Source: an uncultured delta proteobacterium
GTDB lineage: Bacteria; Myxococcota_A; Polyangia; Polyangiales; Polyangiaceae
Assembly (NCBI GenBank): GCA_963696385.1
Contig: CAVOKF010000001.1
Location: 160,001-224,000 of the forward strand
Direction of reading: 5' to 3'
DNA length: 64,000 nt
In this document: piece after piece, positions 30,001 through 36,000 of the stretch
Numbering within the stretch: position 1 is the stretch's first letter
Layout of the letters: each line of letters opens with the position of its first letter
Made by a program: the position numbers

Positions 30001-33000
30001 CCACATCACGTCCATTCCGGCCAAAGCCCTTCTCCTCGCCGTGCCGCTGTGCGTCGGCGCTCCCGACGAAGCTCGGGCGCAGATGCTTTCACCGGCGCCG
30101 CCCGCGGCGTTCATCGCCACGACTCAGCCGGAGTACTTCGAAAATCGGTCGGTCTACTGGTACCAAGACCACTGGTTCTACCGGGACGGGCTCCGCTGGA
30201 ACGTCTACCGCACCGAGCCGCCGTACCTCCGTAGCCGTCGGTCGAACTGGGGCAGTCGCCCGCGCTACCACTACTACCGCTGAGTCGGGCCCGACGAGAA
30301 CCACTCCTACCGCTGAGTCGGCATGCTGCGGCACGCGTATTGCGACTATGCACCGCTCCGCTCGAGTGAACTCGGAGTCAATCATGAAAAAGCCGGATGA
30401 AGTCATCGGAAGCCTCTCGCCGCACGAGGCGAAGCAGGTTGCAGAACTGGTGAGCGGTGCCGAAAAAACACTGGCGCACGAGGCTGCGGTCACGTTCGAT
30501 GTCAGCGAGACGCGTGCGACGATTCCTGAGCGTGTCTGGGATCACGTCATCGCCCAAGCCAGCGCGGCGGGGTGGCTCGCGGAGGCAAAAGGCGCGACCG
30601 TGACGATCCGTCGCCCGCCAAACGGCAGCCGCACGTCGCGCTGACCGGCCGACGCGGCCACGAGCGATCCAACACGGGACAACGCGACGTTTGCCGTCGC
30701 GCGGGAGGATCGCCGTCCGGGTCGCATGTCCACATCCGCCCGACGGATCGCCGTGACCGAGCCCACCCGCAAACCGCACCGCCAACGTGTCACGGCATGG
30801 CTCTTGCGCTCGGGGCGCATGTCACGCGCTCCTTCGAGCGCGCGCCCCCCCACTCGATGCATGCGATGCATGCGATGCATCGGTCGCCGTAGGAGATCGT
30901 TCCATGAATGCGGGATATTTTCAGGTCGCAGTCTTGTCTCTACTGGGCATGGGCTTGGTCATGCTTGCGGCGTCGGCCATCCGAATCGCCAAGGAATACG
31001 AGCGAGGGGTCGTCTTTCGGCTCGGTCGCCTCATTCCTCTGCGCGGCCCCGGCCTCTTTTTCATTTTTCCATTCGGCGTCGACCGCGTGCGAATGGTCGA
31101 CCTCCGGGTGATTACGCTCGAGGTCCCGCAGCAGGAGGTCATCACGTCCGACAACGTGACGGTCAAGGTGAATGCCGTCATTTTCTTTCAGGTCAAGGAC
31201 GCGCAGGCGGCCATCGTCCGCGTCTCGAACTACATGGAAGCGACCTCCCAAATCGCGCAAACGACCCTCCGTGCCGTTCTCGGCCAGTCGAGCCTCGACG
31301 AGCTTTTGGGCGGCCGCGACAAGATCAACGGCAAGCTGCAAACGATCATCGATGGCCAGACCGAGCCCTGGGGCATCAAGGTGGGTCCGGTCGAACTCAA
31401 GGATGCGCAGCTGGCCGAGTCGATGGTCCGTGCGTTGGCGAGGCAAGCGGAAGCCGAGCGCGAGAAGCGAGCGAAGATCATTGCCACCGAGGGCGAATTC
31501 CAGGCCGCCCAGGTCCTTGCCAATGCCGCCGAAATCATTTCCACACAACCGGCCGCTCTTGCCCTGCGCTACATGCAGACCCTTCTCGACATGGGATCGA
31601 ATCAAAACTCGACGATCGTGTTTCCGATCCCCGTCGAACTGATCCGGCCGCTCTTGGCCGCTCCGGTGCCCATGAGAGCCGTGGAAGCGCCGCGCGCTTC
31701 CGCAAACGGCGGGGGGGAGTCCTCGGTCGCGAAGCCACTCGCTCTCGCGCCGGTCGTGCGCTAGCCCTACTTTCGCATTCGGGCGGCGAAACAGGTTACG
31801 CCGCCTCGTGAATTGCAGCCCGTTTGCGACGTGACGGCATAGTGGAAAGAAGTGAAGGCATCCAACGTCCAAGCTCGAAGACTTCGATCGCCTGCTTTTG
31901 CCACGGGGTAATGTCGGGCGGGAGCAGCCAGGTCGGGCGACGGCCCATTCCCCCGCCAGTGGCTCTCACCTGCGTTGCCTCAATCTCTGCGAGAGTCTTC
32001 ATCATCGGTGACCTTGCGGCAACACTGCGGTGAGCGGTCGTGACGCGGAGGCGTGGGTGTAAAATAGAGCTTGCGTTCTAAAAAATGACGCGATACGGAT
32101 CGCGCCCATGGAGGCATTGCTTCGATATCGAGGACGCGAGGTGCGCGCCGGCGACGTGGCGTTTCTGCGAGAGCTGATCGCCGCGAGTCCGGGGACCAGT
32201 CGCCGAGCGTTGTCGTTCAAGGTTTGTGAGGCGTGGGGTTGGGCGCAACCCAACGGGACGTTGTGCGATGCGGTCTGTCGCGGGCTGATGCTGCGATTGC
32301 ACCGGGAAGGCCACGTGGAGCTGCCGCCGGCGCGATGGCGGAGTCAGCAGCCGCGTCGGCACGCGGTCGTGGATCATGTGGATGTCCCGGCGCGCCCGCT
32401 GGCGGTTCCGCTCGCGGAGCTCGGTCCCCTGGACATTCGGCAGGTTCGACGCACGCCCGAGGAGTCGCTGGTCAAGTCGCTGGTCCAGCAGCATCACTAT
32501 CTGGGGTACACGCATCCGGTCGGCGAGCACCTCAAGTACCTGGTATCGGCGGCCGGACAGCCGATCGCGTGTTTCTGCTGGTCGTCGGCCGCGCGGCATC
32601 TGGGGCCTCGGGATCGCTACATCGGCTGGTCCAAGGAGCAGCGAAGGGCCCATATTCGGTTTGTCGCCTACCAGAGCCGGTTTCTGATTTTGCCGTGGGT
32701 GAAGGTGCCGCATCTGGCGTCGCATCTGCTCGGCGCCATTTCGCGCCGGCTTTCGGACGACTGGCAGCGAGTCTACCGGCATCCGATCTACTTCACCGAA
32801 ACGTTCGTCGATCCGGATCGTTTTCGTGGCACCTGCTACCGCGCGGCCAACTGGACCGTTTTGGGCATCACGACCGGCCGCGGAAAAGACGACCAGACGC
32901 ATGCCGCGAATCGTTCCCTCAAACAGCTGTTCGGATATCCGCTGGTCGGCGACTTCCGAAAACGCCTGCTCGGTGGGTACTGACGTGGATCGCACGCCCG

Positions 33001-36000
33001 TCCGTGACGTCGACCTGAACGACCTGCCGCCGATGCTGGAGCGCATCCGGGCGGTCGTCTGTGACGACGACTACCACCTCATCGAAGCGCTTGCGACGAC
33101 CGTGATCGAGATGACCCGCGAGCTGCGCAAGACCCACGCCACGCTGACGCGGGTGCGGCGCCTCTTCGGACTCACGGGCAATGAGAAGACCGCTCACATC
33201 AAGGCCGACGTGGCCAACCCTGCGTCGCAGACGGCCCATCCGGCGGTCGAGCCGCAAGACGCGCCCGCGAGCGATCCCAGCGCCACCCCCGCGGCCGCGG
33301 CGAATGCGCCGGAGCCATCGGCGCCCCCCACGAAAGAAAAGCGCAAGGGTCACGGACGCGTGCCCGCCTCCGCCTATCGCGCGGCGCAGCACGTCACCGT
33401 GGATCACGAGTCGCTGCGGCGGGGAGACTCGTGCCCGCTCTGCACACAAGGCCGTGTCTACGAGCTGGCCGCCCCCGCGACCCTCGTTCGGATCGTCGGG
33501 CGGGCTCCGCTGGGGGCCGCCTGCTTTCACTGCAAGCAGCTTCGCTGCGGCGCCTGCGGCCACGTGTTCACCGCTCGTCCGCCGCCCGAGGCCCAGGGAG
33601 AAAAGTGCGACGAGTCCGCCAGCAGCATGATCGCCGTGATGCACTACGGAGCGGGCGTTCCCTTCCATCGACTCGAGAAGCTGCAGGACAATCTCGGTAC
33701 GCCCGTCCCTGCGTCGACCCAGTGGGATGTCCTGCGCGACCGCGTCGATCGGGTCGAGCCGGTCTACAAGGAGCTCAAGCGCATCGCCGCCCAGGCCGAG
33801 CTCTTGCACGTCGACGATAGCCACATGCGCATCTTGAGCCTCATGGGCAAGCGCCGCGCCGACTTGCTCGCGAAAGGAACACTCGAGGCCCCCGAGCGCA
33901 CAGGCTTGTTCACGACCGCCATCGTCTCGATCATCGCGTCACTCGGCGTCATCGCGCTATTTTTCACGGGGCGAAAGCATGCGGGAGAAAACCTCGCCGA
34001 GCTGCTGAAACAACGAGCCCCAGACCGGCCTGTCCCTCTGCTCATGAGTGATGCCCTTTCGCGCAACGTCCCCGACGGCCATGACGTCATCGAGATCAAT
34101 TGCATCTCCCACGGGCGACGCAAGGTCGTCGACGAGGTCGCCAACTACCCCGACGAGTGCCTCGCGCTTCTCGAGCGGCTCGCGGCGGTTTACAAGGTCG
34201 ACCACGACTGCAAAAAGCAAGGCCTCTCGGACGACGAGCGATTACGGGTGCACCAGCGACTCAGCGCGCCCGTCATGGGGGATCTGCAGAAGTGGATGAC
34301 CGCTCAGCTCGACGAAAAGCGCATCGAGCCCCACTCCGACCTCGGGCAGGCCTTCCACTATTTCCTCAAACGGTGGGACAAATTCACGGTTTTTCTCCGT
34401 GTTCCGGGAGCCCCGCTCGACAATAACCTGTGCGAGCGTGTCCTCAAGATGGCGATTCGGTTGAGAAACGTGTCGTTCTTTTACAGAAGCGAGCTCGGTG
34501 CGCGCGTCGGCGACATCTATATGACCCTCATCCACACCGCCGAGCTGCACCACCAAAATCCCTTCGATTACCTCACCGCGCTGCAACGCCATTCCAAGGC
34601 CGTCGCCGAGGCTCCCGGCGACTGGCTCCCCTGGAACTACAAGGCCACCCTCGCACGGCGCGGCGCCTCGCCGAGCGGCGGCGGCGACGATACGCGTGCC
34701 GCCGCCTAGACGGCGATGAGCGCGGCCGGCTTACGCCGCCGCGACGTCCGGCGTCACGGAACGCCACGGGCTCGCCGCCTGCGTCGCCTCCGGATTGCCA
34801 CCCATCAGCAGCACCTGCACTTGGTGCGCCAGCAGCTGGCGAGTCTTCTCGTCGCCAGCGCCGCTTCGTGGCCAATGTGCAAATCGACCCTGCGACAAAC
34901 GCTTTTGGCAGAGCCAGAATCCCTGCCCATCATACGCCAAAATCTTAATCGCGGTCCCCCGACGACTTCGAAATACGAACACTGCTCCCGAAAACGGATC
35001 GCTCGACAAGATCTGCCGGCACACCCGGCACATCCCGTCGATCCCCCGCCGAAAGTCCACCGGCTCCACCGCAACCAGAATCCGCATCTGCGGCGTGAGC
35101 TGGATCATCGCTCGCGTCTCCAGAAGGCGTGCGCCAATCCGACCACGTCCAACCCGCTCGCGCCCGTCACCTCCACGCGCAGCCGCTCTCCGCCTCGACC
35201 CTCGAGCTCGATCACCGTCCGGCTCGACCCGTCCGCCGTCCTCGCCGCCGGCATCGCCACTTCGATGAACGACGGCGACGTCGTCTCGATCGCCGAACCC
35301 GTCGACGCTTGGCTCATCCGGTCCTTCAGCCCTTGGTAATTCAAACGCGTCGCCCGCGACGTCGCCCACACCCCTTCGCGGCGAGCCACCTCGATCGCCG
35401 CGTTCCACAGCTCCTGCGGCACCCTCGACCGCTTGCCTCCGCATCCGGCTCGCCACCGCTCTATCCGCCCGCGCAGACTTTCTAGAGCGCCCGTTGCCCC
35501 GATACTCGTTCGATTCATCAGGTCTTCCTCCTGACCGCGACGCTGCCCGAGTCACGCGTCGACTTCACGCACTGTTGCCGAATGCCACCGCCGCCCGCCG
35601 CGACCCGCCCCTCTCGCACGCCCCCCCCGCCAGACCCCCCCCTCGTACTCCCCGCCCCGCAGCCGTGCCGCAAGGACACCATCATCGCTCGCGCTGACTT
35701 CGTCGTGCCCATCGCGATCCGGGCAAGGCTAACGAGCGTCAGGCCGAGCACGGTCGCAAACGTGTGCAGGCGCAGGGAGGTGTCGGCCCATTGGTGCGAG
35801 GGTCCCCAGGGAACCACGCCGCCCTTCTTCGATCGGCGGAAGACCTCCTCGACGCACCATTGACCGCGGCAAGCGGTCACAATCCGTTCATTGGACCAGC
35901 TGTGTCTGTCGGTGCAGAGCACCCGTTTGCCGAGGCGTGTTCGCTCGAGCTCGCGTCGTCGGATGGGGTCGACGCTCCACTGCAACGTTGGGGCGTCCTC

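Follow-up and report, generated by a model that had tools for sequence, protein, structure and literature searches.

An IS66-family insertion sequence carries a portable gene for a Mom-type GNAT protein

Genes that Pfam labels DruA (PF14236, DruA/DUF4338) bear the name of a protein of the Druantia defence system, and one of them lies inside a transposon in the window analysed here, a stretch of 64,000 nucleotides from the genome of an uncultured member of the Polyangiaceae. This raises the question of whether the gene is defence cargo or a working part of the transposon, and of what its 291-residue product does.

Organization and mobility of the element

The transposon is an IS66-family element of 3,672 bp (32008..35679) with four genes. 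The gene labelled DruA (32108..32983, forward strand), here called the Mom-type gene following the profile and structure comparisons given below, precedes tnpC (32985..34709, forward strand), which starts one base past its stop codon. The latter encodes the IS66 DDE transposase, with 574 aa from an inferred GTG start (PF03050, 138.9 bits; NF033517, 184 bits against a cut-off of 180). On the reverse strand are tnpB (34731..35108), encoding the 125-aa IS66 accessory protein (PF05717 and NF033819), and a 137-aa gene in the position of tnpA (35105..35518), which matched no Pfam or NCBIfam model and is kept beside tnpB in related loci. The terminal inverted repeats, at 32008..32030 (forward) and 35657..35679 (reverse), are imperfect, with 19 of 23 bases matching, and resemble the ends found in other loci.

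The element is flanked by two copies of an 8-bp target duplication (32000..32007 and 35680..35687) and has split an element of the IS1634 family on the reverse strand, which together with a Band 7 gene forms its surroundings. The 5' part of this target, outside the IS66 element, was recognized at 35680..37319 (NF033559, 155.5 bits) and the 3' part at 31761..32007. Contigs C2, C8 and C4 contain uninterrupted IS1634 sites. All four public sequencing runs examined contained the empty site, in which position 31999 is joined to 35680 and the eight letters fit both sides. Two further full copies are present in the genome, one identical to that of the window (C7:468946-472617) and one with 97.9% identity (C2:114438-118103), besides partial copies at C7:1437293 and C6:50554. 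Each of the three full copies has its 8-bp duplication and imperfect ends, and 8/8 duplications also occur at the related loci L015, L038 and L055. The 3.67-kb element, its three full copies, their duplications and the insertion into IS1634, all claimed in a preliminary description of this DNA, were thus found again, and the empty sites are added here. The other IS66 elements of the genome, with TnpC identities of 23–28%, lack the Mom-type gene.

The DruA label

The extra gene is an insertion sequence gene and not the DruA of a Druantia defence island. Its product matches PF14236 with 114.6 bits over model positions 33–226 of 297 only, and PADLOC returned no match for it. With the PADLOC DruA models, six true DruA proteins scored 243–634 bits and 12 proteins of the insertion sequence type 0–32 bits, and DruB to DruE are not among the neighbours at the locus, namely tnpC, tnpB, tnpA, the split IS1634 and the Band 7 gene. 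The two kinds of protein share a segment of 76 columns (90.9%), and the PF14236 model lumps two subfamilies; a profile of true DruA, built from five sequences only, gave no match to Mom. A sample of the phylum contained 19 other genomes with a PF14236 match, and 12 of them carry the insertion sequence type, with a transposase adjacent or fused in nine of these 12 and the remaining three undecided. This bears out the earlier suggestions that the annotation here marks a transposon gene and that many lone DruA hits do so too; the Pfam and RefSeq labels on lone genes often denote insertion sequence genes rather than defence.

Fold and conserved residues of the Mom-type protein

The closest solved structure to the protein is that of the Mom protein of phage Mu. 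Among 791 Foldseek matches in the PDB, Mom (8BV8) ranked first, with an E-value of 8e-7, and VIA-align placed it at Z 14.6 (rmsd 3.7, 164 residues aligned), against 12.4 for the next GNAT. A phage Mom ranked second in a structure search of BFVD, and comparison of the family profile with that of nine phage Mom proteins gave 96% (E 2.8e-9). Ordinary protein acetyltransferases rank close behind Mom in the fold lists. The GNAT fold that had been proposed is therefore borne out, and the likeness to Mom, which had been called weak, is far better than that, the PHROG Mom-like match on which it drew (E 0.004) being reproduced at the same value.

The profile alignment pairs H130/Y131, R191, S205, D235 and Y244, in a Mom-like GNAT domain of residues 105–290 (32420..32977), with Mom H58/Y59, R111, S124, D149 and Y159, which are described as active-site residues in the available text of PMC13219725. 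Across 109 domains, the histidine is kept in 109, the first tyrosine in 107, arginine in 109, serine in 108, an aspartate or glutamate in 107 and the last tyrosine in 109, and over ten partner groups no residue of the N-terminal domain is more invariant than these catalytic ones. The N-terminal domain (residues about 10–77; 32135..32338) resembles mostly winged-helix proteins, with middling Z scores of 4.3–5.8; it had no Foldseek match at E<=0.001 and none in the ESM Atlas. It is present in 119 of the 120 fusion proteins listed, and its residues R32 and W45 are conserved. Between alleles of the gene, dN/dS is about 0.13.

The 291-aa protein had no match to the Pfam Mom model (PF25680); 29 of 80 relatives matched it at E<=0.05, and the protein P0267 passes its cut-off (29.6 over 27.1). 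A single-sequence comparison with Mom gave 2.6%, and neither the protein nor the profile had a match among the PDB sequences searched. In the ESM Atlas, only clusters labelled DruA were hit, one with 12% Mom members and one with 42% Tnp_DNA_bind members.

Spread across insertion sequence families

A search of related loci yielded 65, of which 37 have a tblastn match to TnpC behind the Mom-type gene; the tnpA–tnpB pair is inverted in 19 and colinear in 15, so that these counts agree with the earlier ones except for the 13 colinear layouts given before. Those of the more distant homologues, of about 40% identity, that lack a tnpC match lie directly before single-gene IS66 or IS1182-like transposases or are fused to transposases of the IS4/IS50, IS701, IS630, ISAs1 and IS66 families. 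Altogether the gene was found beside or fused to IS66, IS4/IS50, IS701, IS630, ISAs1, ISKra4 and IS1182-like transposases, with partners exceeding the NCBIfam cut-offs for IS66, IS4 (two models), IS701, IS630, ISAs1 and ISKra4. To describe it as part of an IS66 subfamily was consequently too narrow. All 120 long hits listed contain a transposase domain, the module being N-terminal in 64 and C-terminal in 56. The family has many members: each of the 8,000 candidates of comparable length that were scored matches, 2,779 long forms exist, and a single Accumulibacter genome holds 33 matches.

The gene moves between transposases. A single clade of IS66-linked domains was rejected (p-AU 0.0001), the locus L016 combines a cassette of 80% identity with a transposase of 20% identity and other ends, and alleles have been swapped while the transposase and the right end stayed the same. 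Cassette and TnpC distances are correlated over 32 elements (Spearman 0.6), and the ends of the different host families have no evident common sequence. Within the IS66 group the gene is near-fixed and not, as had been claimed, strictly fixed: it is present in 16 of 18 informative TnpC relatives and absent from L132 and from L137, a complete element with both ends that is nested among gene-bearing TnpCs in a quick tree. It was found in only 2 of 72,556 plasmid records and in 0 of 50,697 phage records; the host taxa of the gene may be poorly represented in both collections.

Promoter-like region and expression

Upstream of the gene, 37 of 58 distinct upstream regions contain a conserved promoter-like motif, in the window at 32070..32100 (forward strand), with a −35 region CTTGCGTTCY, a candidate operator, and a −10-like element that ends 7 bases before the ATG. 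A consensus promoter scanner did not flag this putative promoter. None of the 58 regions has a Shine-Dalgarno-like sequence, and therefore the gene is probably leaderless. Three metatranscriptome runs yielded contigs over tnpC, tnpB and tnpA, and one of them also covers the 3' half of the Mom-type gene, as a diverged allele; no contig covered the 5' half at 88% likeness. Because the same runs also contain the empty site, these contigs may stem from DNA rather than from transcripts.

Possible functions

We consider it somewhat more likely than not that this active IS66 element carries a portable cassette, composed of a promoter and a winged-helix/Mom-type GNAT gene, whose product acylates adenine in DNA. 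Like Mu Mom, the enzyme would most likely modify N6 of adenine in double-stranded DNA, with charged tRNA or acyl-CoA as the acyl donor; the activity that defines the Mom family is the transfer of glycine from Gly-tRNA to this position. The winged helix would bind DNA in place of the insertion that is missing relative to Mom, and would probably also repress the promoter of the cassette, so that an activity which may be toxic stays low unless the cell is naive. The most probable advantage would be the masking of element DNA from restriction on entry into new hosts. Unrelated families could capture one and the same cassette because its target would be DNA and not a partner protein. The near-absence from plasmids and phages counts against an anti-restriction role, which predicts such vehicles; complete elements without the gene (L137), the short loop that replaces the Mom insertion, the lack of an in-register counterpart of Mom R151, the missing match to the Pfam Mom model, the 2.6% of the single-sequence comparison and the middling winged-helix scores also count against this reading. 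The element, the fold, the conserved residues, the spread over families, the swapping and the promoter-like motif are observed; substrate, donor, autoregulation and benefit are deduced from them.

The same chemistry could serve another purpose, with adenine marks in or near the ends or promoter of the element determining how often or when it transposes, in the way that Dam methylation controls transposition of IS10 and IS50. Frequent in-frame fusion to transposases, which would deliver the enzyme in cis, the one-base spacing to tnpC, the scarcity on plasmids and phages and the correlation of cassette and TnpC distances agree with such control, which we nevertheless judge unlikely, given the lack of an evident common sequence at the ends, the swapping of alleles while transposase and right end stay, and Mu-type target sites only slightly denser in the element (80 per kb) than in the genome (70), a difference that says little. 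That the gene is defence cargo, protecting the host from phage by itself or as the modifying part of host restriction, while insertion sequences merely spread it, seems very improbable considering the PADLOC scores, the transposases adjoining the gene in the phylum sample and the fusions, which would be atypical of cargo, even though the Pfam family and the 76-column segment are common to true DruA and a fusion of DUF4338 to DndF appears in the available text of PMC10853773.

If the GNAT acted on something other than DNA, either charged tRNA, like the toxins TacT and AtaT, or a lysine in the transposase, the gene would be a module for addiction or regulation in which the winged helix is the repressor. 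The available text of PMC13219725 states that the substrate of a GNAT cannot be read from its fold, and ordinary acetyltransferases do follow Mom closely; however, R191 corresponds to Mom R111, which according to the accessible part of PMC7261163 is conserved in Mom homologues and not across GNATs, no antitoxin gene lies in the element, and the partners are unrelated transposases attached at either terminus, which makes this improbable. A DNA-binding repressor of the element with a dead GNAT scaffold would fit the conserved R32, W45 and operator-like motif, yet it is scarcely credible where the catalytic residues vary no more than any of those in the winged helix.

A bolder version of the adenine-acylating cassette, which we put forward tentatively and think rather less likely than not to hold in full, is that at least seven insertion sequence families share an exchangeable, self-repressing epigenetic cassette, whose Mom-type enzyme, guided by the winged helix, writes a bulky amino-acid-derived adenine mark on DNA around the transpososome, possibly from charged tRNA. 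If true, the element would be shielded from restriction or its transposition switched, and many environmental bacteria would contain an unrecognized DNA base.

Comparison with known systems

In 2009, Iyer et al. (Cell Cycle 8:1698) reportedly connected Mom-like proteins with bacterial transposons of diverse families, and these proteins are probably the family seen here. We know of no experimental test of such proteins. A literature search found no paper describing a Mom-type gene on insertion sequences (DruA and transposase as whole words: 0), the 2009 prediction lying outside the searched texts. The earlier statement that no description exists agrees with this search but is doubtful because of that reported prediction; Mom-like proteins on transposons were, in that case, already predicted, and the IS66-borne cassette is therefore a variant of that kind. 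In the available part of PMC7824862, the work of Iyer et al. is cited for momylation systems in the genomes of phages and bacteria. With the reaction of Mom solved in 2026 (PMC13219725, available text), a standard assay can now test the old prediction. If the enzyme is active, a DNA hypermodification enzyme that has until now been characterized only in phage is also borne by the smallest mobile elements.

Canonical IS66 elements have the colinear order tnpA–tnpB–tnpC and ends that start with GTAA. The window element shares with them TnpB, TnpC, the 8-bp duplication and the terminal inverted repeats, whereas its ends start with GTG, it has a fourth gene, and its tnpA–tnpB pair is inverted and convergent with tnpC, the colinear order being found in its relatives. 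Druantia type I DruA (PADLOC PDLC00001/2) has in common with the 291-aa protein the Pfam family PF14236 and the shared segment, which surrounds an RD..GW hairpin, but the open frames of the true DruA proteins identified in this analysis span 640–820 aa. Arc, an accessory protein of IS605-family elements, binds and represses the element promoter (bioRxiv 10.64898/2026.09.24.754181), the role proposed here for the winged helix; according to the available text, it differs in having a ribbon-helix-helix fold and no enzyme domain, and DruA, GNAT and IS66 are not mentioned there.

With Mu Mom (8BV8; PF25680), the protein shares the GNAT core and, in register, the H-Y, R, S, D and GxxYxAxN[FW] motifs. 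Mom R151 is out of register, D237 being aligned with it and R238, conserved in 100 of 109 domains, standing one residue off. In the alignment and in the secondary structure of the model, the HTH-like insertion of Mom (175–209), essential in Mu Mom according to the available text of PMC13219725, is a short loop. The IS66 protein adds the N-terminal winged-helix-like domain and the RD..GW hairpin, and, unlike Mu Mom, it is carried by insertion sequences, often fused to a transposase, with a promoter-like motif of its own.

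The element and its copies

The IS66-family element lies at positions 32008–35679 of the window and contains a 291-aa gene matching Pfam PF14236 (DruA/DUF4338), tnpC and a convergent tnpB-tnpA pair. A search of the source genome returned two further full copies (100% and 97.9% identity) and two partial ones, and inspection showed imperfect terminal repeats and an 8-bp target duplication at every full copy, as the preliminary description had stated on both counts. The window copy interrupts an IS1634; the intact form of this site is present on three other contigs of the genome and in 4/4 public runs examined. 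Among 100 other genomes searched, the only near-full match was a 93%-identical copy in another genus of the same family. The copy at C6:50442–52719 of the source genome, in which an internal deletion has cut tnpC and removed tnpB while both ends and a second allele of the gene are intact, is a non-autonomous derivative.

Elsewhere in the window, the frame at 38208–40757 reads like what we take to be a transaldolase/glucose-6-phosphate isomerase fusion. Its sequence turns unlikely near the end, which suggests a frameshift.

A Mom-type protein distinct from DruA

The 291-aa protein was modelled with pLDDT 94 from an alignment of 80 relatives, drawn from 182 near-full-length matches at <72% mutual identity. 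Mu Mom was the best PDB match of this model in two programs (E 8e-7 in one; Z 14.6 in the other, where the next GNAT reaches 12.4), and a profile built from nine phage Mom sequences gave a 96% match to the gene's family (E 2.8e-9). Kinship with Mom, described earlier as a weak likeness, thus stands, and its weakness does not. The profiles pair H130, Y131, R191, S205, D235 and Y244 with Mom H58, Y59, R111, S124, D149 and Y159, the active-site residues according to section 13 of PMC13219725, and these six are conserved in 107–109 of the 109 domains compared (either D or E being accepted at 235). The Pfam Mom model does not match the 291-aa protein. Residues ~10–77 are winged-helix-like by structure comparison, with middling scores only. 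Among viral models (BFVD), the structural ranking is led by an uncharacterised protein of Faunusvirus (A0A3G4ZXG3; E 2e-9, TM 0.55, 261 columns), and a Yasminevirus protein (A0A5K0UAJ3) also matches.

Identity as DruA was rejected, since the PADLOC DruA profile gives the protein no score. In a phylum sample of 300 other genomes, PF14236 was matched in 19. Seven have long forms with hardly any match to our profile, six of which were tested and score 243–634 bits on PADLOC DruA; the other 12 carry the element-borne type, which reaches ≤32 bits (12 tested) and has an adjacent or fused transposase in 9/12, the remaining three being short contigs or fragments. The earlier assignment to an IS gene rather than DruA is borne out by these scores and neighbours. 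In five long true DruA forms (L081, L082, L083, L086 and L088), the consensus lacks, by eye, the motifs around Mom R111 and S124; their activity may therefore be a different one.

Spread over insertion-sequence families

A transposase lies directly behind the gene, or is fused to it, in 52/65 loci: 37 by TnpC match, nine further IS66-type and five IS1182-like by profile, and one ISAs1 fusion. An IS21-type element interrupts one further locus, and the other 12 are truncated, fragmentary or unclassified. Earlier locus counts were closely reproduced (n=65), with 37 having tnpC behind the gene, 19 an inverted and 15 a colinear layout. A domain scan of 20 longer representatives found transposase-related domains in 11, a cyclase domain in one and nothing else in eight; the cyclase case, P0233, is fused to an adenylate/guanylate cyclase domain, possibly as an insertion artefact. 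A long-protein search gave 2,779 matches among 7,999 scored, and all 120 of the long matches listed are transposase fusions, with the module at either terminus. NCBIfam confirmed IS66, two IS4 models (one IS50-like), IS701, IS630, ISAs1 and ISKra4 as partners, while IS1182-like partners score under its cut-off. Terminal repeats enclose the gene in elements of three kinds: tnpABC-type, single-gene IS66 and IS1182-like. Partner type is clustered on a quick tree built from 109 domains, yet changes 22 times (minimum 11), and a single clade of IS66-linked domains is rejected (p-AU 0.0001; 34/109 rows, a simpler model, long branches present). The gene is therefore not confined to IS66, and its reading as part of one IS66 subfamily was too narrow, given the IS4, IS701, IS630, ISAs1 and ISKra4 partners.

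The genome of Ca. Accumulibacter affinis holds 33 profile matches, with at least three element types behind them: IS66 tnpABC, IS66 with tnpC then the gene, and an IS50-like fusion. At two loci, L164:1157–3775 and L052:3790–5647, a large serine recombinase neighbours the gene, and the L164 gene is downstream of an IS91-type zinc domain; the cassette may travel there on a mobile element of non-DDE type. A multi-copy form (L177, L178:1474–3612) is followed by a frame of 406 aa that matches nothing in Pfam or NCBIfam.

Near-fixed presence and exchange of the cassette

A TnpC-first survey yielded 34 loci outside the source genome, of which two were duplicates and 14 uninformative. The gene is present in 16 of the 18 informative loci, several being near-copies of the window element. 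L137, an element both complete and colinear, lacks the gene; because its TnpC nests among gene-bearing TnpCs, the absence is a loss. The 'fixed' fourth gene is thus near-fixed rather than strictly fixed.

Both partial copies and L001 carry a second left arm, whose gene differs from the first by dS 0.7–0.8 (dN/dS 0.13), while tnpC differs by a dS of only 0.003–0.05. In the C2 copy, a short patch is nearer to the second allele, and L016 combines a cassette of 80% identity with a transposase of 20% identity and ends of another kind. The cassette is exchangeable between elements. A reverse transcriptase gene (L016:7932–9272) lies just beyond the right end of the L016 element.

A promoter-like motif

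Of the 58 distinct upstream regions compared, 37 show TTGC[GT]TTC at the -35 position and none a Shine-Dalgarno-like word (starts picked automatically). The single-gene IS66 and IS1182-like groups are each marked by motifs related to it. Of 93 core sites in the source genome, four have the complete motif together with -10 and start, and all four are at the element; a variant stands in the C2 copy. Exceptions are forms downstream of tnpC, which lack the motif, and L177/L178, which have a ribosome-binding site. Conservation beyond the hexamer suggests a candidate operator that the winged helix might bind.

Proposed role

Mom moves glycine from Gly-tRNA onto adenine N6, as reported in PMC13219725. 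In phage Antuna, the Mom-like gene (L152:115–837) adjoins a gene for tRNA-Gly, Mom's donor tRNA. The activity of the element-borne protein is probably DNA modification, and in the simplest reading the predicted DNA-adenine acylase would serve its own element. DNA as the target would explain how the gene came to be captured by unrelated transposases, and on either terminus. Protection from restriction is a reasonable, if narrowly favoured, purpose for such a modification; the gene's rarity on plasmids (2/72,556 records) and phages (0/50,697 records) counts against it, with collection bias a possible cause. That the modification would instead control transposition seems rather unlikely.

Comparison with known systems

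Our literature search found no published description of the gene on IS elements. The sections covered of PMC7824862, PMC7261163, PMC3299994, PMC4738411 and PMC3874153 make no mention of such a link, and PMC10853773 describes DUF4338 as a GNAT fused to DndF. Terms for the link are absent from the YprA preprint. Mu Mom has an essential HTH-like insertion, which the IS66-borne protein lacks, and R151 of Mom has no in-register counterpart in it; together with the missing Pfam Mom match, these differences speak against counting it as a full member of the Mom family. Iyer and colleagues reportedly linked Mom-like proteins to diverse bacterial transposons in 2009, so that Mom-like proteins on transposons are a kind already known, as a prediction. 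The apparent additions made here are the equation of the family with Pfam DruA, its two-domain architecture, the motif at the promoter, the exchange of cassettes and the availability of an assay.
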